DNA of 64,000 bases from positions 1 through 64,000 of the IMG/VR virus record IMGVR_UViG_3300044619_001118, one strand, 5' to 3'. This DNA is from a virus. Positions 3,562 to 31,470 of the stretch are shown one piece after another (position 1 is the stretch's first letter; every line of letters begins with the position of its first letter). The notes beneath the pieces were generated by a model. That model was not told the DNA's origin. It made no database searches and saw nothing but the letters and a program-made list of their open reading frames with translations. A program made the position numbers and the translations under genes.

Positions 3562-6500
3562 ATGATATACAAGAAGAGAAATAAAAAAAATCTAATCAAC
3601 ATAAATTGTAGATTTATTGAACTTGAAAAAAACTCACCGAAGTTTTTTAATATTAGTTTCATGCCAGAACAATTTACTGCTGGTAAAAATCTATTTAAGT
3701 TTAGACCGATTAAATCTCGTTTTTCTAAAAAAGACCCAATACAAATAGAAGTTTTGGATTTTAATGGAAATCCAATATATCATGAAGTTTTGGATTATAA
3801 GGAAAGCGATGGTTCTTTAGTTGTTGCAATTTATGTGTATGAAGATACTCCTGCCGGAAATTGTAGTATAACAATGATTGGTACATCAACTGTTGATGAA
3901 AACCTAAAACAATTACCGAATCTAGAGTTAACATCGAATAACTTAAAATACATCCATGAGTTATACGTTGACCCAAAGAAAAGAAACGATACAGAAATAT
4001 TATACATAAAAGAACCTAAATTTTCTGTAAAAGAACGGAAATTTTCTATCGTTGAAGAACAATTCGCAGGACAAAAGATAGTATCTATGGGTGGAATTGG
4101 AACGTATTCCTTTACATCCGATACTCCAAAATTTATTTCAAATGGTAGTGCTTTTTTAAAAGAATATCAAAATGGTATAATCAAATTTAATTCGCTGTCC
4201 AGTCAGTATTCTCCAGCTGTAAATTTTGAAACAAGTAGTTTTTCGTACACTGCGAGTATAATAGAAGTAAGGTCTCCGTTTCAAATGCAACTCTCCGAAC
4301 CTGCGGAGATTTATGGTCTGAAGAGTGAATCCCAAATCCTGAAAACAATTTACACTCAGCCATATGAAGTTACTTTTTCTTTCAATCCAAGTAAAAGGAA
4401 TATAACTCAAAACGTAAAATCATACGCAGAAATCGATATAGATGGAATTGACCCATCGGCTGGCTCGGTAGACCGTATTAAAGTTTTCTATAAGAGTACA
4501 TTTAAACCAAAATCTGAATACGAACTAGTATATGATGATGTTGTAACTCCAAAAAACATTTTGGTTGATACTGGTTCAAAGTTAATTGAATATCCAATTG
4601 GAATATTTGATGGAAGCAATACCCTATCATCTGCGGGAATTCCATCTAATAATACAATAAACTCATCGGATTACTGGAATATTGAATTAATAAACTCTGC
4701 ACCATCTGCATCAAAATTGGTTGGTAACTCGTATCTATTTGATATGATGCAAGTTTTACCGACTCAGGTAATGTCAGGTTCTTCTGAAATTATCTTAGTA
4801 CAAAATTCAAATGTTGCAATACCACTTGTTAAAGATACAGATTATCGTGTTAAATTTGACTATTATATTGGGAATAGTAGTTTAGACGAAAGAGGTCCAA
4901 AAATAGAAGTTTATGCGTCTGGTAGTTCCTTTGTAAACACTAATGATATTGGTAAATTTGTTGGTAGTGTTCCAACGGGAAGTAAAGCAAATTCTATAAA
5001 ACTCGATTATGAGATGAAGTTGCCCGTTAATTCAAACGGTAGTGGTATTTTAAAATTTGTATTACGAGCTGGTTGTGGTATATCAAATATCAGAATAGTT
5101 GAAGATATAGATTTTGGATTCACACAAAACAGAACAAAATTATATGTACCGATAAAACAAGACCACAAATTAGAATATTTAGATTTCAAAGTTCAATTCT
5201 TCAATTATACTTTGAAAGAATCTAATATGCAACCGGTTGTGTATGATACCATGTTCAACGGTGGTAATCATTACATTTACGGTGACGATAATATCATAAC
5301 TGGTTCTACGGCAATATCACCATATACATCCAGTGGTATTCAACTATATGGCAACGTTACAGGTTCATATTCTGGCTCTGCTGTTCAAAGCTGGGGATAT
5401 GGTGGTAAAGAAAAAGCAATAGCTAATAGAGATACCGCATCAAATTTTGGATTTGCATTAACCAAAAATAATCCATATGGTATTCCAAATTATGGAGACA
5501 ATACGGTTCAAATGATAAATGAGTGTGGTTCTGTTTTTGATTTTAGAACAACACCCCCATCATTTACAATGCACGCCGTTGGTAAAAATACGAACTTTAC
5601 ATTAGGAATAAGTGGTTCCGATGATTCTAATTTTGGATACGGTGGAACAAGTGGCTCTTGCATAAACGACGATTGTACACCTGGTGGTAATTCATATATA
5701 AGATTTGATGGATGTAATATTATAATTTCGAATGCCAGAGATGCAAATGGTGTATTGTATATTGCTGGTGCGAGTGGAACTGGTGGAACACCGGGGACAC
5801 CTGGTACATCCGGTACATCGGGTACTTCTGGTGTAAACGGAACATCTGGTACATCCGGTGTAAATGGTACATCGGGGACATCTGGTGTAAATGGTACATC
5901 TGGTACTTCGGGTGATTCGGGTTCTTCTGGCTCATCGGGCTCTTCTGGTTCTTCTGGCTCATCGGGTTCATCCGGGTCTTCTGGTTCATCCGGGTCTTCT
6001 GGTTCATCGGGTTCTTCTGGTTCTTCAGGTTCCTCTGGAACCTCTGGCTCATCAGGAACCTCTGGCTCATCAGGAACCTCTGGCTCATCAGGAACATCTG
6101 GTTCATCTGGAACATCTGGTTCATCTGGAACTTCCGGCTCCTCTGGAACATCGGGTTCATCGGGAACCTCTGGTACAACACCAGACCCATTGGATTGTTG
6201 TGATTGTGCCCCTGTAATTTATCAGTATATACGTTGGCAACAGTTTGGTCAACTAGGACCAAATCCATGTCCACCAGATGAAATACAACAATTTGCTGCA
6301 CCAACATTTCCATCCGCAACTGCACCAAGTGCCAGTGTAAGTGGTAGTAGTAATTTATTCACCGGTTCTATGTATTTTAATACCACATCTGGTTCAATTT
6401 ATGTTTGGAATGGCTCAAACTGGTTAAGTGGATTTGGAACATCTGGTACTTCTGGAATCAATGGAACATCAGGAACATCGGGAACAAATGGTTCATCGGG

Positions 6501-7215
6501 TACTTCTGGAACAAGTGGAACATCGGGTACTTCTGGAACAGGTTTTAACTCTATAAATAATGCCGGTAATTTACGTGTTCTATTCTCCGATGGAACAACA
6601 AATGCAGCAACTGCATCAACTTATCTAACTGTAACCCAATCAAATGATACATCCACAATTGCAGTCGGTATAGGAACAACGAACACATCAAATGAAGGTA
6701 ATTTGTTCTTAGGTGCAAGGAGTATAAATGAAGGAGGTCAATTATTCCTTCAAAGAGCAACTGGCTATACTTCGGCATCTATGATAGACAATTATCAAAA
6801 CAGATTTCGAATTCTTCGTGGTAATGATACATCCAGTAATGCGGAAGATTTTTCTATAAATCATACCACGGGTCAAGTTTCATTTACAAGGTATAATTCA
6901 ACAAGTTCATTTACAGGTACACCTATTGATTTTCTTTCATTTGATTCTGGCGGTAATATATTAACATCACCGTCAAAATTTACACAAATAATTGGAAACA
7001 CCGTACAGAGTTCATTTAACATAACCCACAGTTTAGGTGATGCCAATATTCAAGTGAACATACGAAGTAATTCAACTGGTCAAATATATTACCCATCTGC
7101 AACGGCAGGTGCACCGCCACAATACACTGCTACTGTTGTAGATTCAAATACCGTCACAATTGCATTTTCATCGGCACCATCTGCAAATCAATTCATTGTT
7201 GTTATTAGTAAATGA
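3562..7215 (+). CDS. Large virion structural / fibre-like protein with Gly-X-Ser triplet tracts
   Basis: 1217 aa; beta-rich N-terminal ~730 aa, (GTS/GSS)n tracts at ~5767-6177 and ~6436-6540, fibre-like C-terminus (FNITHSLG...VDSNTVTIAFSSAP). Confidence 0.65.
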   Translation: MIYKKRNKKNLININCRFIELEKNSPKFFNISFMPEQFTAGKNLFKFRPIKSRFSKKDPIQIEVLDFNGNPIYHEVLDYKESDGSLVVAIYVYEDTPAGNCSITMIGTSTVDENLKQLPNLELTSNNLKYIHELYVDPKKRNDTEILYIKEPKFSVKERKFSIVEEQFAGQKIVSMGGIGTYSFTSDTPKFISNGSAFLKEYQNGIIKFNSLSSQYSPAVNFETSSFSYTASIIEVRSPFQMQLSEPAEIYGLKSESQILKTIYTQPYEVTFSFNPSKRNITQNVKSYAEIDIDGIDPSAGSVDRIKVFYKSTFKPKSEYELVYDDVVTPKNILVDTGSKLIEYPIGIFDGSNTLSSAGIPSNNTINSSDYWNIELINSAPSASKLVGNSYLFDMMQVLPTQVMSGSSEIILVQNSNVAIPLVKDTDYRVKFDYYIGNSSLDERGPKIEVYASGSSFVNTNDIGKFVGSVPTGSKANSIKLDYEMKLPVNSNGSGILKFVLRAGCGISNIRIVEDIDFGFTQNRTKLYVPIKQDHKLEYLDFKVQFFNYTLKESNMQPVVYDTMFNGGNHYIYGDDNIITGSTAISPYTSSGIQLYGNVTGSYSGSAVQSWGYGGKEKAIANRDTASNFGFALTKNNPYGIPNYGDNTVQMINECGSVFDFRTTPPSFTMHAVGKNTNFTLGISGSDDSNFGYGGTSGSCINDDCTPGGNSYIRFDGCNIIISNARDANGVLYIAGASGTGGTPGTPGTSGTSGTSGVNGTSGTSGVNGTSGTSGVNGTSGTSGDSGSSGSSGSSGSSGSSGSSGSSGSSGSSGSSGSSGSSGSSGTSGSSGTSGSSGTSGSSGTSGSSGTSGSSGTSGSSGTSGSSGTSGTTPDPLDCCDCAPVIYQYIRWQQFGQLGPNPCPPDEIQQFAAPTFPSATAPSASVSGSSNLFTGSMYFNTTSGSIYVWNGSNWLSGFGTSGTSGINGTSGTSGTNGSSGTSGTSGTSGTSGTGFNSINNAGNLRVLFSDGTTNAATASTYLTVTQSNDTSTIAVGIGTTNTSNEGNLFLGARSINEGGQLFLQRATGYTSASMIDNYQNRFRILRGNDTSSNAEDFSINHTTGQVSFTRYNSTSSFTGTPIDFLSFDSGGNILTSPSKFTQIIGNTVQSSFNITHSLGDANIQVNIRSNSTGQIYYPSATAGAPPQYTATVVDSNTVTIAFSSAPSANQFIVVISK

Positions 7216-22707: not shown

Positions 22708-23073
22708 ATGTCAAATTGGTCAAGAAGTCTTGCTGGAGTACAAACTCTTTCGGAAGTAAGTGCAAGTGCTGCAATTAGTGGTGGTACACTTACATTAGAT
22801 TTGAGTACCGCTGGTATTTTTTACGTCAATTTAAATGCAAATGTAACTACCTTGACAATATCAAATACTCAAACAATCGGTGCAAGTGCTTTTACATTGA
22901 TATTTATTGCTGATGGAACACCTCGTTCAGTTACATGGGGTGCAAGTATTTTATGGCCAGGTGGAACTGCACCAACACTTACTTCAACAAACGGTAAAGA
23001 TGATATATTTTCATTTGTAACGATAGACGGTGGTACAACTTGGTATGGATTCAACGGAGGTCAGAATTTATAA
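22708..23073 (+). CDS. Small beta-sandwich fibre adaptor-like protein
   Basis: Pattern LTLDLS...FTLI...DGT.RSVTW...ILWPGGTAPTLT...DIFSFVT.DGGTTWYG resembles a fibre C-terminal domain; directly precedes the RCC1 gene. Confidence 0.6.
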   Translation: MSNWSRSLAGVQTLSEVSASAAISGGTLTLDLSTAGIFYVNLNANVTTLTISNTQTIGASAFTLIFIADGTPRSVTWGASILWPGGTAPTLTSTNGKDDIFSFVTIDGGTTWYGFNGGQNL

Positions 23074-23076
23074 GTT

Positions 23077-26000
23077 ATGCCTTTTATTAAAAACATAGTA
23101 GTACAGAAAACAAAGACTCTAGCGGCACCAGTTATACAATACTCACTTTGGGGTTGGGGGGATGGCACTGTTGGTCAAACGGATAATGATATACTTACTT
23201 ACGTTCCATATCCAGTAGATAATGGAACAACATGGGTGAGTGGGAGTGGTGGTGCCTCACATACAATGGCTATAAAAACAGACGGAACTCTATGGGGTTG
23301 GGGTGCTAATGCATTCGGTCAACTTGGTGACCGTACTGTGATAAATAGAAGTTCTCCAGTTCAAATAGGAACTCTTACAAACTGGTTAAAAATTTCTCGC
23401 GCCGGTAATACTACATTGTCTATAAAAACAGACGGAGCACTTTGGGCATGGGGTTCAAATGCGTCGGGTCAATTAGGTGATGGTACTGTCATAAATAGAA
23501 GTTCTCCTGTTCAAATTGGAACTCTTACAAACTGGGCATCTGTCTCTGGTACAGTTTCACATACAATGGCTATAAAAACCGATGGAACTCTTTGGGGTTG
23601 GGGACTTGGTTCATCTGGACAGATTGGTGACGGTACTATTATTTCAAGGTCTTCACCTGTTCAAATTGGAACTCTAACAAATTGGGCATCTGTTTCTGCT
23701 AATAGTCTTTACTCAATGGCTATAAAAACTGACGGAACTCTTTGGGGTTGGGGACTTGGTACATCTGGACAATTAGGTGATAATACTGCTTTATCTAGAA
23801 GTTCTCCTGTTCAAATAGGAACTCTTACAAACTGGGCATCTGTCACTGGTGGTTCTGGTCATACAATGGCCATAAAAACAGACGGAACACTTTGGGGTTG
23901 GGGTGCAAACACAAGCGGACAGATTGGTGACGGTACTACTACAACAAAGTTTTCACCTGTTCAAATTGGAACTCTAACAAACTGGGCATCTGTTATTGCT
24001 AGTGGTAATCCCGGCGGTAATCATACAATATCCATAAAAACCGATGGAACTCTGTGGGTTTGGGGTAATTCTACTTCTGGTCAATTAGGTGACGGTACTA
24101 CTAATGATAGAAGTTCTCCTGTTCAAATAGGAACTCTTACAAACTGGGCATCTGTTTCTGCTGGGTCATCCCATACAATAGCCATAAAAACAGACGGAAC
24201 AATATATACATGGGGAGCTGCATTATCTGGACAACTTGGATATACGATGCAACGTTCCTCACCTGTTCAAATTGGTGATGGTTATTCTTGGTCAAACATT
24301 GATGCAGGCCGAATCGGCACCAGTGCAGGACTTCACACAATGGGTGTTAAAACCAATGGAACTCTATGGGGTTGGGGTGGAAATCCATCTGGTCAACTAG
24401 GTGACGGTACTTTGATATTTAGAAGTTCACCTGTTCAAATAGGAACTCTTACAAACTGGTCATCTGTTGAATGTGGTACTGATTCTTCATTTGGTTTGAA
24501 AACGGATAATACCTTATGGGGTTGGGGATACAACGTAAATTTTGAACTCGGAGACGGCACATCTACATCTAAGAGCTCCCCCGTTCAGATTGGAAGTTTA
24601 TCATGGAAAAAAGTTTCAGCTGGTGCTGCGTTTACAGTTGCTATTTCATCTGATGATAAATTGCAATCATGGGGGTCTACTTCTGCTGGTAAACTTGGAT
24701 TTGGATTTAATAACAGTCCTGTTCAATTAAATTCCACATATGATTGGTCAAGTGCAGCTGCATCTGCCGGAAGTATTATTGGATTAAAAACAAACGGAAC
24801 TCTGTGGTCATGGGGAAGTAATACACAAGGTGAACTCGGTTTAAATGATACAATAACTAGGTCATCACCCGTCCAAATAGGAACAGATGTAAACTGGTAT
24901 TCAATTGATATGGGATTCGAAATAGGCTCAACATCGGTCGGCGCGATAAAAACAGATGGTACACTTTGGACATGGGGGAACGGTGGTAGTGGACAGTTAG
25001 GTCATTCAAATACGGCAAATCGAAGTTCACCTGTTCAAGTTGGAACTTTAACAAGTTGGTCTAAAATCTCTGTTGGAACCGCATGGATGATGGCATCAAG
25101 AACAGATGGAACTCTTTGGGTATGGGGTGGTTCTCCTAATTTTGGACAACTTGGTCAAAATAACACAAGTACCTTTAGTTCTCCTGTTCAAATAGGAACA
25201 CTAAATACATGGTCACAAATTGCAGCAGGTCGATATAGCGCATTTGCTATAAAAACAGATGGAACATTATGGTCTTGGGGATTAAATACAAGTGGTGAAC
25301 TTGGAGACGGAACAGTAATTAATAGAAGTTCTCCTGTTCAAATAGGAACTCTTACAAACTGGTCAAAAATATATGCCGGTGGTGATTCAACATCTGCTGG
25401 TTCAACGATAGCTATAAAAACAGATGGTACTCTTTGGATGTGGGGCCGATATGCATCCGATGGTACAACAGTTTCACGAAGTTCTCCTGTTCAAATAGGA
25501 ACACTCACGAATTGGTTATCTGCGTCCTCTGGAGGAAATGTTTCGAACTTTGCAATAAAAACCAACGGAACTTTATGGACTCTAACTTCCTTTAGTAATG
25601 GAGATACTGGAGATGGAACTTATAATGGTAGAAGTTCTCCTGTTCAAATTGGTACTTTAACGTCATGGTCTTTTGCATTAGCGACTAGTTCAACTGGTTA
25701 TGCCATAAAAACTGATGGTTCTTTGTGGGGATGGGGTGGCAATGTATTGGCATACTATCCAAAAGTAATTCATGCTCAAAACACTTCAAATATTATAAGA
25801 CCCTGTATAATAGATGTGGATAATTGGGGTGAAGTTTCTGCTGGAGCTAGTTATTCTATGGCCATAAAAACAGACGGAACACTTTGGGGTTGGGGTAGAA
25901 ACGGCAACGGTCAGTTGGGTGATAATACGACCACAACACGGTCTCAACTTGTTCAAATAGGCAATCTCACTGATTGGTCAAAAGTTTCTGCTGGTGATTC

Positions 26001-28479
26001 ACACACGATGGCTATCAAAACCGACGGAACTCTATGGTCTTGGGGAACGGGAACTAGTGGTCAGTTGGGATTAGAATCAACAACACCATCGTGGACTATT
26101 GACAGAGGAACTAACTGGGCAACAATTTCTGGAGGTGCTACATATACATTAGCCGTAAAAACAGATGGAACACTATGGTCTTGGGGGAATGGTCTTCTAG
26201 GCCGATTAGGCACCGGTAATACTACAAGTAGAAGTTCACCTACTCAAATTGGAACCCTCACAAACTGGTCATCTGTTTCTGCTGGTTTTGGTAATAATTT
26301 AGCCCTAAAAACTGATGGAACTATGTGGGGATGGGGACAAAATGCAAATGGAGAAATCGGAGATTTTACTTTAACTTCCAGAAGTTCTCCTGTTCAAGTT
26401 GGACTTAATGCAAGTAATTGGTTATCTGTTTCTATGGGTTCAAATCATGGAGTCGGAATCAAAACCGATTACACAATTTGGTCATGGGGCGTTAATAGTT
26501 CAGGTCAACTTGGTGATGGCACCACAACTTCAACTAGTTTTCCTGCTCAAATTGGAACTGGCACAGACTGGTCAAAAGTTTCTTGTGGTCAAAATCACAC
26601 AATTGCCATAAAAACAGATGGAACTCTTTGGGCATGGGGTGGAAATTCCGTTGGACAATTAGGTGATAATAATAGTCCATTTGGCAAAAGTTCACCTGTT
26701 CAAATTGGGACTCTTACAAATTGGTCATCTGTTTCCGCTGGTTCTAATAATTCACTTGCTATAAAATCGGATGGAACTTTATGGGCATGGGGCTCGAATA
26801 CTAATGGACGATTGGGAATAACAACACCAGTTTTACCAATAAAATTGGATAGTGGTGCTAATTGGTCAACTGCTGGTTTATCTTCACATTCTATGGTTGT
26901 AAAAACCGATGGAACTCTATGGGGATGGGGATTAAATTCAAACGGACAATTAGGACTTAATGATACAATAAATAGATCGTCACCTGTACAAATCGGCACA
27001 GACACTAATTGGTCAACTGTTGCTGCTAATTCTGGATTTACACTTGCTATAAAAACAGATGGAACACTTTGGTCATGGGGACAAAATTCAAATGGTCAAC
27101 TTGGTCAGACTATATCAACTGGTATAAATCGTTCTTCACCCGTTCAAGTTGGTACTTTAACAAATTGGTCAAAAATATCAATAGGACCAAATTTTGCAAC
27201 TTCTATTAAAACAGACGGTACTTTATGGGTGTGGGGTAGTAATGGAAACGCTCAACTCGGTTTAAATAATTTTACTCAACATTCTTCTCCTGTGCAAGTC
27301 GGCACAGACACTAATTGGTCTTCCATATCTGCCGGCGGTAACGCATTTTGTGTTGCTATTAAAACAGATGGAACACTATGGTCTTGGGGTAATAATACAA
27401 ATGCTGAACTTGGACAAAATAATACCATATCTAGAAGTTCTCCTGTTCAAATAGGAACAGATGTAAACTGGTCAAGAATATCAGCCGGCGCATCTGTTAC
27501 ATTAGCTATAAAAACAGACGGAACTCTATGGGGATGGGGCGCCAATGCAGCATATTCTCAAATAGGTGATGGGACATCTACAACTAGAAGTTCCCCTGTT
27601 CAAGTTGGTACGCTAACAAATTGGTCTTCCATATCTGTTGGTGGTCAAACATCCACTGCATTAAAAACAGATGGGACTCTATGGACATGGGGTGGCGGTT
27701 CAAATGGTGAATTTGGCGACGGAACTTTTACTTCCCCAAGAAATTCCCCAGTTCAAGTCGGCACTCGCACAGATTGGAAATCTGTATTTGCTGCTGGTTC
27801 AGTGCCAACCAGTATTTACCATGTAATGGCAATCGATACATCGAATAACTTATATGGGTGGGGAATAAATACCACAGGACAACTTGGTTTAAATAATGTA
27901 GTATCATACAATTCAACTGGATATTCATCGCCAATTCAAGTGGGTACTCTTACAAATTGGGCATCTGTTTCTGCTAACGGTGGTAGTGGTGGTTCACATA
28001 CAATTGCTGTAAAAACCGATGGAACTCTATGGGGTTGGGGTGGAAATCCATCTGCTCAATTAGGTGACGGTACTCTTGTAACTAGAAGTTCTCCTGTTCA
28101 AATAGGAACTCTTACAAATTGGTCGAGAATTTCTGCTGGTGGTGGACATTCAATATCAATAAAGACAGATGGTACACTACGTGCATGGGGTGGAAACACA
28201 AATGGCGAATTGGGTAGAGGATTCATAGCCGGCCCAGTTTCCCGTTCTTCACCTGTTCAATTGGGCGAAGACCAATGGACATCGGTTTATGCCGAAAATT
28301 CAAATACAATGGCAATCCGCTCAGATGGAACTCTTTGGGGGTGGGGTCTAAATACAGCCGGTTATATTGGAGATGGAACGGTAATTTCTCGTTCATACCC
28401 CGTACAAATTGGTACATACTCTAAATGGAAACAAGTTTCTTCTGGTGCTTCTCATACCGTTGCTATTCGTGAAGAATAA
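23077..28479 (+). CDS. RCC1/BLIP-II-type repeat protein, 35 repeats (five 7-bladed propellers)
   Basis: 35 copies counted of ~50-aa LWxWG..GQLGDGT...RSSPVQIGTLTNW..VS.G..HT.AIKTDGT. Confidence 0.9.
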   Translation: MPFIKNIVVQKTKTLAAPVIQYSLWGWGDGTVGQTDNDILTYVPYPVDNGTTWVSGSGGASHTMAIKTDGTLWGWGANAFGQLGDRTVINRSSPVQIGTLTNWLKISRAGNTTLSIKTDGALWAWGSNASGQLGDGTVINRSSPVQIGTLTNWASVSGTVSHTMAIKTDGTLWGWGLGSSGQIGDGTIISRSSPVQIGTLTNWASVSANSLYSMAIKTDGTLWGWGLGTSGQLGDNTALSRSSPVQIGTLTNWASVTGGSGHTMAIKTDGTLWGWGANTSGQIGDGTTTTKFSPVQIGTLTNWASVIASGNPGGNHTISIKTDGTLWVWGNSTSGQLGDGTTNDRSSPVQIGTLTNWASVSAGSSHTIAIKTDGTIYTWGAALSGQLGYTMQRSSPVQIGDGYSWSNIDAGRIGTSAGLHTMGVKTNGTLWGWGGNPSGQLGDGTLIFRSSPVQIGTLTNWSSVECGTDSSFGLKTDNTLWGWGYNVNFELGDGTSTSKSSPVQIGSLSWKKVSAGAAFTVAISSDDKLQSWGSTSAGKLGFGFNNSPVQLNSTYDWSSAAASAGSIIGLKTNGTLWSWGSNTQGELGLNDTITRSSPVQIGTDVNWYSIDMGFEIGSTSVGAIKTDGTLWTWGNGGSGQLGHSNTANRSSPVQVGTLTSWSKISVGTAWMMASRTDGTLWVWGGSPNFGQLGQNNTSTFSSPVQIGTLNTWSQIAAGRYSAFAIKTDGTLWSWGLNTSGELGDGTVINRSSPVQIGTLTNWSKIYAGGDSTSAGSTIAIKTDGTLWMWGRYASDGTTVSRSSPVQIGTLTNWLSASSGGNVSNFAIKTNGTLWTLTSFSNGDTGDGTYNGRSSPVQIGTLTSWSFALATSSTGYAIKTDGSLWGWGGNVLAYYPKVIHAQNTSNIIRPCIIDVDNWGEVSAGASYSMAIKTDGTLWGWGRNGNGQLGDNTTTTRSQLVQIGNLTDWSKVSAGDSHTMAIKTDGTLWSWGTGTSGQLGLESTTPSWTIDRGTNWATISGGATYTLAVKTDGTLWSWGNGLLGRLGTGNTTSRSSPTQIGTLTNWSSVSAGFGNNLALKTDGTMWGWGQNANGEIGDFTLTSRSSPVQVGLNASNWLSVSMGSNHGVGIKTDYTIWSWGVNSSGQLGDGTTTSTSFPAQIGTGTDWSKVSCGQNHTIAIKTDGTLWAWGGNSVGQLGDNNSPFGKSSPVQIGTLTNWSSVSAGSNNSLAIKSDGTLWAWGSNTNGRLGITTPVLPIKLDSGANWSTAGLSSHSMVVKTDGTLWGWGLNSNGQLGLNDTINRSSPVQIGTDTNWSTVAANSGFTLAIKTDGTLWSWGQNSNGQLGQTISTGINRSSPVQVGTLTNWSKISIGPNFATSIKTDGTLWVWGSNGNAQLGLNNFTQHSSPVQVGTDTNWSSISAGGNAFCVAIKTDGTLWSWGNNTNAELGQNNTISRSSPVQIGTDVNWSRISAGASVTLAIKTDGTLWGWGANAAYSQIGDGTSTTRSSPVQVGTLTNWSSISVGGQTSTALKTDGTLWTWGGGSNGEFGDGTFTSPRNSPVQVGTRTDWKSVFAAGSVPTSIYHVMAIDTSNNLYGWGINTTGQLGLNNVVSYNSTGYSSPIQVGTLTNWASVSANGGSGGSHTIAVKTDGTLWGWGGNPSAQLGDGTLVTRSSPVQIGTLTNWSRISAGGGHSISIKTDGTLRAWGGNTNGELGRGFIAGPVSRSSPVQLGEDQWTSVYAENSNTMAIRSDGTLWGWGLNTAGYIGDGTVISRSYPVQIGTYSKWKQVSSGASHTVAIREE

Positions 28480-28572: not shown

Positions 28573-29598
28573 ATGAAAAACCGAGCAGATAAAATAGTAC
28601 CGGGTCAAATGCACCCACTTGATATTGCACTCCAAGCCAGCATTAACGGTCATCCTGAAATTAGTGAAGATATTTTACGTTCTCAACCACAAGATGACCT
28701 TCGAGTTCTTTTCAATCTTGGTTGGCACGAAATGAGACATGGTAATCTCAAAAAGGCAATGGAACACTTTAACTACGGTCGGTATATCGACGTATTTGGA
28801 CTACCACCACTTCCAGGAAAAATTTGGAAGGATGAACCACTCGAAGGAAAAACACTTCTTTTCAGATGTGAAGGTGGTTATGGAGACCAAATTCTTAACT
28901 TTCGTTTTGCAAAACATTTTGTAGAAAAAGGTGCAAGAGTTCTTGTCTCTTGTGCACCAGAATTAAAAGAAATATTTTCTCGTCACGGATATATTTGTAT
29001 TGACAATGAAGTTGCAATGGGTGCTCATTACGATTATTGGGTTCCAGCTATGTCAGCGGCATTTATCTTGGATATGGAATACGAAGACCTTGACGGTTCT
29101 CCATTTCTAAAACCAAAAGAACCAAGAACACTTTTCGCAAAGAAAGGAACTTTAAAGGTTGGTGTTCGTTGGTCTGGTAGTCCTGACTTTGAAGATGAAC
29201 AACATCGTAGATTTGACCCAAATCTTATGATTGACCTTCACGATATTCCAAATACAACATTCTATTCACTTCAACGTGATGAAAATCTTGTTGATGGTTT
29301 GCCATTTGGTGATATGAGAGAACAAATGAAATCATGGGAAGATACTGCAAACATCATGGCAGATTGTGACATTATCATTAGTTCTTGTACCGCAACTGCA
29401 CACCTTGCCGCGGCAATGGGTAAACCAACTTGGGTTCTAACTCCTATTATGCCTTACTATACTTGGGCAGTTCCTGGTGATGGTTCAAGGTGGTATGATT
29501 CGGTAAAGTTGTATCGTCAAGTAAAATATGGTGAATGGGATGTTCCATTCCAAAAGATTCGTGAAGACCTAACAAAGTTAGCGGAAAACCACAAATGA
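28573..29598 (+). CDS. TPR-like + GT9-like (GT-B) glycosyltransferase
   Basis: N-terminal helix pair VLFNLGW; EGGYGDQI.NFRF, KVGVRWSGSP, FYSLQ, WEDTA..MA.CD.IISSCTATAHLAAAMGKPTW, WYDSVKLYRQ. Confidence 0.8.
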   Translation: MKNRADKIVPGQMHPLDIALQASINGHPEISEDILRSQPQDDLRVLFNLGWHEMRHGNLKKAMEHFNYGRYIDVFGLPPLPGKIWKDEPLEGKTLLFRCEGGYGDQILNFRFAKHFVEKGARVLVSCAPELKEIFSRHGYICIDNEVAMGAHYDYWVPAMSAAFILDMEYEDLDGSPFLKPKEPRTLFAKKGTLKVGVRWSGSPDFEDEQHRRFDPNLMIDLHDIPNTTFYSLQRDENLVDGLPFGDMREQMKSWEDTANIMADCDIIISSCTATAHLAAAMGKPTWVLTPIMPYYTWAVPGDGSRWYDSVKLYRQVKYGEWDVPFQKIREDLTKLAENHK

Positions 29599-31020: not shown

Positions 31021-31470
31021 ATGAGATACGTGTATGTCCAAGACGAACAAGTAATAGAAGGGCCGGTAATGTTACCAATAAATTGGAATAACATTTCCAA
31101 TTTTAATGTATTAGATAACATTACTCTTAAATCATATGGGTGGTATCCACACAGATTTTTAGAGATACCATTGAACGATGATGAAGTGTATGATGGTAGT
31201 TATTATGTTATAGAAGAAAATGAAGTCGTTGAGTATCAAAGAAAACGCCAAAAGACACAGGAAGAAATCCAAAGTGAAATTAATGGTAGATGGGATAACA
31301 TTAGGTCACGGAGAAATATATTACTCGGAGAATCTGATTGGACACAACTTGCAGATGTTTCATTGTCAGATGAAAAAAAAGAAGAATGGAAATTGTATCG
31401 CCAATCACTAAGAGACATAACAAATTTCGATAGTCCAGACCACGTAATATGGCCAAATAAGCCGGAGTAA
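31021..31470 (+). CDS. Tail fibre assembly chaperone
   Basis: C-terminal W..IR..RN.LL.ESDWTQL.D....W..YRQ.LRDIT.....V.WP..P pattern. Confidence 0.8.
   Translation: MRYVYVQDEQVIEGPVMLPINWNNISNFNVLDNITLKSYGWYPHRFLEIPLNDDEVYDGSYYVIEENEVVEYQRKRQKTQEEIQSEINGRWDNIRSRRNILLGESDWTQLADVSLSDEKKEEWKLYRQSLRDITNFDSPDHVIWPNKPE

Follow-up and report, generated by a model that had tools for sequence, protein, structure and literature searches.

The RCC1 gene, its repeat units and two kinds of junction

The window analysed here comprises positions 1 to 64,000 of the IMG/VR virus record IMGVR_UViG_3300044619_001118, a record of 74 kb with an estimated completeness of 44 %, and the subject of this report is the intact open reading frame (ORF) at 23077–28479 on the plus strand, the product of which is a protein of 1800 amino acids (aa), referred to below as P0001. 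The gene lies in a tail-fibre gene module, between collagen-like tail-fibre genes and a gene for a tail-fibre assembly chaperone. Membership of its product in the RCC1 repeat family is clear from the Pfam models RCC1, RCC1_2 and RCC1-like domain, which span the protein from one end to the other with scores above the curated cut-offs (PF25390, 1377 bits against a cut-off of 150; PF00415, 797 bits in 28 stretches; PF13540, 629 bits in 29 stretches). When a unit border is placed behind every '..W.WG' hairpin, that is, at the end of strand C, the protein is tiled by a 28 aa N-terminal piece followed by 35 units of 43–59 aa, in each of which the C–D loop, D strand and linker precede strands A, B and C. 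A first-pass annotation of this DNA, made from the letters alone, had counted 35 RCC1 repeats, and the tiling gives the same number. The only strand in the N-terminal piece is a strand C, and unit 35 stops behind strand B ('HTVAIREE'), so that the two ends of the protein sum to one blade. A 2+2 closure of the ring is known from RCC1 and is resembled by this arrangement, but here the closure would span 1800 residues.

For a junction score, the first half of each unit (C–D loop, D strand, linker) was aligned to the consensus GQLGDGTTINRSSPVQIGTLTNW. Of the 35 scores, the lowest eight belong to units 18, 1, 20, 25, 11, 8, 34 and 32, with unit 18 the lowest of all; these are exactly the repeats that the first-pass annotation had singled out by their atypical linkers, and junctions 8, 32 and 34, which it had described as the least distinct, are indeed the least atypical of the eight by score. 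They divide the protein into segments of 1, 7, 3, 7, 2, 5, 7, 2 and 1 units and are of two kinds. In the entry (E) units, namely 1, 11, 20 and 25, the C–D loop is shortened by 3–4 residues and the D strand departs from the canonical form, being of the type P..hD.G..W (in unit 1 the short loop is followed by the D strand YPYPVD). Among the exit (X) units, 8, 32 and 34 keep the canonical RSSPVQIG and have an altered or lengthened loop or linker (the loop being lengthened in unit 32), and unit 18 has a long, odd loop. The parts of the gene are listed below in the terms of the arrangement that we favour, in which blocks of seven units (cassettes) would be inserted into one another or into a hub.

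23077–23160, plus strand: N-terminal peptide and strand C of the putative closing hub blade (residues 1–28)
23161–24216, plus strand: predicted cassette P_A, units 1–7 (residues 29–380), opening with E1
24217–24675, plus strand: predicted hub segment 1, units 8–10 (residues 381–533), with X8 (YTMQRSSPVQIGDGYSW)
24676–25737, plus strand: predicted cassette P_B, units 11–17 (residues 534–887), opening with E11 (NSPVQLNSTYDW)
25738–26046, plus strand: predicted hub segment 2, units 18–19 (residues 888–990), with X18 (D strand RPCIID)
26047–26793, plus strand: first part of predicted cassette P_C, units 20–24 (residues 991–1239), opening with E20 (TPSWTIDRGTNW)
26794–27864, plus strand: predicted cassette P_D, units 25–31, inside P_C (residues 1240–1596), opening with E25 (VLPIKLDSGANW)
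27865–28191, plus strand: second part of predicted cassette P_C, units 32–33 (residues 1597–1705), with X32
28192–28479, plus strand: predicted hub segment 3, units 34–35, and stop codon (residues 1706–1800), with X34 (RGF..SRSSPVQLGEDQW)

Individual units differ in other respects as well. Units 2–7 (within 23161–24216) are 67–78 % identical to their closest partner unit, which always lies within the cassette of units 1–7, and at the DNA level the identity reaches 79 %, around 50 % being typical between units; this suggests recent duplication or homogenization inside one propeller. Unit 16 (25447–25587, residues 791–837) has no GQLG motif and ends in '..LWTLT', not '..W.WG', and is a degenerate non-junction blade within the cassette of units 11–17.

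Nested sevens in P0001 and its relatives

Read as brackets, the series E1 X8 E11 X18 E20 E25 X32 X34 is properly nested and each level has seven units of its own. This nested-7 grammar is obeyed by 7,105 of the 23,535,820 sets of eight positions that can be drawn among 35 (3e-4), the valid sets having been counted by means of a generating function. A dynamic program over all nested parses returned the parse of the first-pass annotation as the best, and the score of that parse was reached by one of 3000 shuffles of the unit scores. We consider it likely that the 35 blades form five seven-bladed RCC1 propellers that are joined as a tree, in a T4-like phage protein that would be virion-associated and probably host-binding.

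An alternative is that the protein is a string of five consecutive propellers, possibly with velcro closure over the whole chain as in Aip1 and Utp21, and that the atypical units are simply loop variants. Tandem WD40 propellers joined by ordinary D–A linkers are known from solved structures (Utp21, Aip1; PMC3897721). However, junctions at a regular interval of seven units account for little of the atypicality (a sum of 164 at the best phase, as against 362 for the nested parse), and a plain string leaves unexplained why two types of junction should fall into properly bracketed pairs. We regard such a string as unlikely, although one of the structure predictions described below resembles it. 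The least probable of the explanations that we considered is that the spacing merely records a duplication history, in which seven-unit blocks with one odd blade each were copied and the positions have no topological meaning. Tandem copying of a seven-blade ring does put like units seven apart, but a period of seven in unit similarity was sought at both the protein and the DNA level and was not found, the paired units are of two kinds (short-loop E units with a non-canonical D strand, and long-loop X units), and duplication does not predict that outer brackets sum to seven across an insert (5+2, 1+3+2+1), as they do in many families.

Comparison with close relatives shows the gain and loss of whole bracketed cassettes. 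The IMG/VR phage contig L006 carries an RCC1 gene (L006:6001–9222) for a protein of 1074 aa and 21 units, which is 69 % identical to P0001, and the flanking 121 aa and 341 aa genes are 93 % and 98 % identical, respectively. The L006 protein parses as E1 X8 E13 X20 and keeps the motifs of units 1, 8, 20 and 34 of P0001. It has five ordinary hub units where P0001 has three, then units 11–17, then two, and seven ordinary units where P0001 has five, then units 25–31, then two; in both places the two atypical flanks and all seven units are gone together, a joint loss that a string of consecutive propellers also leaves unexplained. All gaps in the alignment of the two proteins fall in residues 461–915 (sum 351 aa) and 1171–1620 (sum 363 aa) of P0001. 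When all pairs of seven-unit deletions were compared, the best fit to L006 for the second block was the removal of units 25–31. In the case of the first block, starts at units 10, 11, 12 and 13 gave scores of 3898, 3884, 3872 and 3867, and with scores so nearly equal the breakpoint is not sharply resolved. The A–C half of unit 18 matches unit 11 of L006 (SAG.SYSMA.KTDGTLWGWG), and unit 32 corresponds to an L006 unit (..NNTLSYSSPVQIG) with five additional loop residues.

The three other close relatives, L010, P0006 and P0002, have 35, 49 and 56 units, respectively. All three contain the hub junction motifs of P0001 on what appears to be the same hub, with or without the block of units 11–17, and in each of them every bracket level counts seven, both by eye and by dynamic programming. 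The motifs of unit 8 and of hub segment 3 are conserved in P0002, P0006, L006 and L010, as is that of unit 20 (unit 13 in L006), and since these idiosyncratic hub junction motifs are shared, orthologous positions can be named in the closest relatives. Thus the block P_A is kept in L006 and is expanded by 14 (L010), 21 (P0006) or 28 (P0002) further nested units, P_B is present in P0002 and P0006 and absent from L006 and L010, where five hub blades are contiguous, and P_D is absent from all four. The expectation of the first-pass annotation that homologues would differ by whole seven-repeat blocks at the junctions it named was therefore borne out, by the absence of units 11–17 and 25–31 from L006 and by variation inside the bracket of units 1–8, together with the absence of units 25–31, in P0002, P0006 and L010. 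As judged by these alignments, the RCC1 locus is sharply mosaic and hypervariable between conserved flanks. Aligning P0001 dynamically with P0002 and P0006, one unit at a time, proved too noisy, since generic units match anywhere, and the comparison was consequently based on the idiosyncratic junction units.

The same relatives bear on a mixed arrangement, in which units 11–17, 18–24 and 25–31 would be tandem cassettes at one hub site, accompanied by the cassette of units 1–7, and the hub would consist of blades 0, 8–10 and 32–34. Units 11, 18, 25 and 32 are exactly seven apart, and the hub so defined also counts seven. Against this, the strongly atypical unit 20, and unit 34, are left without explanation, in L006 a single seven-unit bracket, enclosed by the E20 and X34 motifs, is made up of the orthologues of units 20–24, 32 and 33, the L006 counterparts of units 18 and 25 are not junctions, and P0002, P0006 and L010 show the same bracket of seven between E20 and X34. 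Three tandem cassettes at units 11, 18 and 25 were rejected on the evidence of L006, and we think the mixed arrangement as a whole very improbable.

The five propellers of P0001, if correctly parsed, would be one case in a much wider family. Protein collections contain thousands of multi-RCC1 proteins, the lengths of which increase in steps of about 360 aa (roughly 730, 1090, 1450, 1805, 2140, 2515 and 2850 aa), and the unit counts in relatives of P0001 are multiples of seven. Many of these relatives begin with an N-terminal peptide followed by strand C and end behind strand B; this combination of ends is found in relatives of 14, 21, 28, 35, 49 and 56 units. For a family-wide test, all cleanly tiled proteins were each scored against their own consensus and grouped into sequence clusters, and it was counted in how many clusters a valid nested set arises from the most atypical units, chance being expressed per protein. 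Such a set was present in 9 of the 24 clusters with 14 units (chance 0.077), in 12 of the 36 with 21 units (0.0105), in 4 of the 10 with 28 units (0.0017) and in one of the four with 42 units (5.6e-5). Across the family the self-consensus score worked better than the consensus derived from P0001, with which the strict test that the lowest 2(k−1) units form the set fails for P0002 by four units, for P0006 by one unit and for many distant relatives. In stand-alone 14-unit families the single E/X pair is found at units 1/8, 4/11, 6/13 or 7/14, positions for which consecutive propellers offer no explanation, and residues 1008–1733 of P0001 (units 20–34) are collinear with the stand-alone 14-unit family of the 6/13 type at 46–51 % identity, with E and X aligned.

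Other trees occur in 21-unit proteins that look unrelated (P0242, P0275, P0279, P0335, P0342 and P0352); one example, E2 E5 X12 X16, would describe a propeller within a propeller within a propeller. In P0064, a protein of 42 units, the ten units with the greatest atypicality make up a valid nested set (chance 5.6e-5). Among named phage records with RCC1 proteins, those of cyanophages come nearest, at about 40 % identity.

Structure predictions

Two parts of P0001 were modelled with AlphaFold2 (AF2). Model 1 covers residues 1008–1733 and was built from eight collinear sequences. A further scan of IMG/VR for collinear 14-unit relatives yielded only three close ones, so that the alignment is shallow and the model weak, with a mean predicted local distance difference test score (pLDDT) of 48.7 and a predicted template modelling score (pTM) of 0.45. 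In two structure searches with this model nearly all seven-bladed chains (over 35 of the 50 best propeller chains), among them UVR8 (Z 17.6), the RCC1-like domains (RLDs) of HERC2, RPGR and RCC1, align from residue 246–255 to residue 580–650, which corresponds to approximately 1253–1647 of P0001 and reaches from the D strand of E25 to the last blade of units 25–31. Other chains span residues 1 to 707 or 725 of the model with about 200 aligned residues, which would be an outer ring built from both flanks. No alignment to residues 1–365 or 366–726, the two consecutive halves, was present among the top 50 rows of either search, and model 1 is thus not a pair of consecutive propellers.

Model 2 covers residues 1–1037 and was built from 76 sequences, mostly non-collinear. 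It is locally confident (mean pLDDT 80.6, pTM 0.47), with dips in pLDDT at junctions 1, 8, 11, 18 and 20, including a value of 41 at residues 891–903 in the region of unit 18. Its best structural match is HERC1 RLD3 (Z 27.7, root-mean-square deviation 2.5, 327 residues aligned), which spans residues 387 to 1029; in the model this is most simply read as the ring at 710–1037 plus the connector and D strand of X8, and the X8 connector and D strand (387–398) align with this downstream ring and not with P_A, a placement that favours nesting. That the blades form seven-bladed closed propellers is supported by both models, the rings of which superpose on HERC1 RLD3, UVR8 and RCC1; the best structural matches among RCC1-like chains have Z scores of 17–28, and a Foldseek comparison with the PDB gave a TM score of about 0.65 to UVR8 over 364 columns.

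Several points weigh against five propellers joined as a tree. In model 2, UVR8 aligns to residues 710–1037 with 316 contiguous residues (Z 26.8, root-mean-square deviation 2.2) and BLIP-II to residues 373–710 (Z 21.1), there is a further ring over approximately 21–400, and the ring predicted for units 11–17 (given there as residues 558–912) did not form. The model looks consecutive and to that extent counts against the hub part of the claim; contiguous rings at about 373–710 and 710–1037 are, moreover, the outcome that the first-pass annotation had itself named as refuting its proposal. Model 1, which agrees with nesting, is of low confidence, and ring membership was judged from the first and last aligned residues only. 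As regards the junction statistics, the score was partly tuned on P0001 itself, the self-consensus score puts unit 16 in place of unit 32 among the lowest eight, and the even spacing of units 11, 18, 25 and 32 described above could be read in another way.

We have nevertheless given model 2 limited weight, because the construct contains neither hub blade 34 nor hub blade 0, so that the hub cannot close, because it counts its rings from the end at which the chain was cut, and because the border between them at about 705–712 bears no mark in the sequence and has a pLDDT of 55–66. The same low values extend over residues 660–720 (approximately 25055–25236), in ordinary repeat sequence, and this border may be an error of assignment on the part of the predictor and not a genuine feature. 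The structure predictions therefore divide: nesting of the ring of units 25–31 appears in the low-confidence model 1, and the ring of units 11–17 is not seen in model 2. A hub with three inserted propellers, one of which carries a fifth, as originally proposed, agrees with the junctions and the relatives, and model 2 counts against the hub part of it.

Proposed architecture, known systems and gene context

Our current working model is that a cassette consists of seven whole units in phase, each with its connector and D strand ahead of strands A, B and C, such that the cassette propeller would start with its own outermost D strand and close on that strand in the manner of velcro. The splice site would lie directly behind strand C of a host blade, in its C–D hairpin. 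The shortened connector of the E unit would lead out to the cassette and into the atypical D strand of the cassette itself, and the lengthened connector of the X unit would return the chain to the D strand of the host blade itself, which is canonical in most cases; this amounts to a swap of D strands. The hub would then be made up of units 8–10, 18–19 and 34–35, closed by the N-terminal strand C, and would carry three cassettes, namely units 1–7, units 11–17, and units 20–24 with 32–33, the third of which would carry the fourth, units 25–31. The cassette borders coincide with unit borders, the E-type D strands resemble one another and come and go with the cassette, and for the X-type D strands, most of which are canonical, there are orthologues in relatives that lack the cassette. 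A D-first, velcro-closed cassette spliced in behind strand C of the host is most likely the correct, and is the most economical, reading of this pattern. The site of insertion is most likely the C–D hairpin of a host blade and not a loop between blades.

Exactly this strand path is known from the solved structure of Trm734, where d7 of the last propeller (BPC) is the first strand; the chain runs on from c7 of BPA into d1 of BPB and comes back from c1 of BPB to d7 of BPA (PMC6847430). This path places a whole seven-bladed propeller in the c–d hairpin of another propeller's blade, with D-first closure, and does so two levels deep; the splice proposed for P0001 would have the topology of Trm734. 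P0001 would thus work like the clusters of Trm734 and DDB1, but it is not a member of that group, having RCC1-type repeats only and, as parsed, five propellers. Proteins of the Trm734, DDB1, CPSF160 and SF3B3 type are intracellular proteins of eukaryotes, with WD40 blades, a fixed number of three propellers and nothing to suggest that cassettes turn over, whereas the family of P0001 has RCC1 blades, up to three predicted inserts per hub, three predicted levels of recursion in relatives, from two to eight propellers in the relatives parsed, and cassettes that are gained and lost between phages otherwise nearly identical. Closure over the whole chain is also found in Aip1 and Utp21, the first strand completing the last blade, and the first propeller is therefore topologically inside the second (PMC3897721); these proteins differ from P0001 in having a single insert, at one end only, no branching, and WD40 repeats.

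RCC1, UVR8, the RLDs of HERC1 and HERC2, RPGR and BLIP-II share with P0001 the repeat family and the seven-bladed ring, with 2+2 or 3+1 closure. The RLD of UBR5 carries small non-propeller inserts. A search of the PDB by sequence found only single RCC1-like propellers, of up to 536 aa, and no propeller inside a propeller, and in the literature searched we found no description of nested or inserted RCC1 propellers or of phage RCC1 proteins of this design. Relative to the three-propeller principle of the WD40 proteins, the novelty would lie in the repeat family, in branching and recursion, and in the turnover of cassettes.

It is tempting to generalize from P0001 to a recursive plug-in grammar, in which self-closing RCC1 cassettes are spliced, repeatedly, into the C–D hairpin of any blade to give tree-shaped host-binding proteins of two to at least eight propellers, and in which near-identical phages swap, gain or lose cassettes; we would give this generalization an even chance of being correct. 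If it is, cassette turnover would change the valency, and probably the host range, of such phages quickly, the rare propeller-in-hairpin topology would be extended to another repeat family and to another scale, and the proteins would represent a natural, evolvable, fractal-like architecture of domain insertion that is undescribed for any protein family. Phages with near-identical flanks and 21-blade or 35-blade versions of the gene would have in it a candidate hypervariable module of host recognition. The family would also lend itself to studying how a very long repeat protein avoids mis-pairing as it folds. It is difficult for structure predictors, as the contradictory ring assignments obtained here illustrate, and its simple bracket grammar would allow such proteins to be parsed from sequence alone.

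The suggestion of a binding role comes from the surroundings of the gene, of which two neighbours are of particular relevance.

22708–23073, plus strand: ORF of 121 aa resembling the C-terminal end of tail fibres (PHROG tail-fibre families, E 1e-17)
31021–31470, plus strand: tail-fibre assembly/chaperone gene, which closes the module (Pfam Phage_tail_APC, E 1.7e-16; PHROG tail-fibre assembly families)

The 121 aa ORF ends, stop codon included, 3 nt ahead of the start of the RCC1 gene and is found at the same spacing at L006:5632–5997 and L010:281–646; its product may act together with the RCC1 protein, as a partner or an adaptor. Another feature that may connect P0001 to the virion is its N-terminal peptide of about 20 aa, which has the family motif M-x-[FI]-K-[ND]-I..., is alike in relatives of 14 to 56 units, and is possibly a virion-attachment element; residues 1–28 have a pLDDT of 32–42 in model 2. 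In the form M-(P)-[FIL]-K-[ND]-I-[ILMV].. (residues 1–22, 23077–23142) the peptide is also seen in P0002, P0021, P0125, P0140 and others.

Between P0001 and L006 the RCC1 gene is far more variable than its neighbours (69 % as against 93–98 % identity, and 21 as against 35 units). Variability of this kind is typical of host-recognition genes, and in combination with the tail-fibre context it makes a multivalent binding role plausible. A parallel is offered by those tail fibres and receptor-binding proteins of phages in which distal modules can be swapped, P0001 being likewise encoded in a tail-fibre module and variable relative to its flanks, but P0001 differs from them in having no recognizable fibre shaft, trimerization module or known receptor-binding fold. 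Of the branched, multivalent adhesin envisaged in the first-pass annotation, then, the branching is well supported by the comparison of relatives and meets with mixed structure predictions, and the function as a host-binding adhesin is a putative one that the gene context makes plausible.

Elsewhere in the window there are genes for a T4-like SbcC-type nuclease, a terminase and a portal protein, and glycosyltransferase and methyltransferase genes lie downstream of the RCC1 gene. The fibre module is unusually large: the ORFs at 14622–19613 (1663 aa) and 3562–7215 (1217 aa) have strong PHROG matches to collagen-like tail-fibre proteins, and a large glycosyltransferase/methyltransferase fusion is encoded at 9379–13317. 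The 341 aa ORF at 28573–29598, which has no Pfam match, is the one that is 98 % identical to its counterpart at L006:9319–10350.

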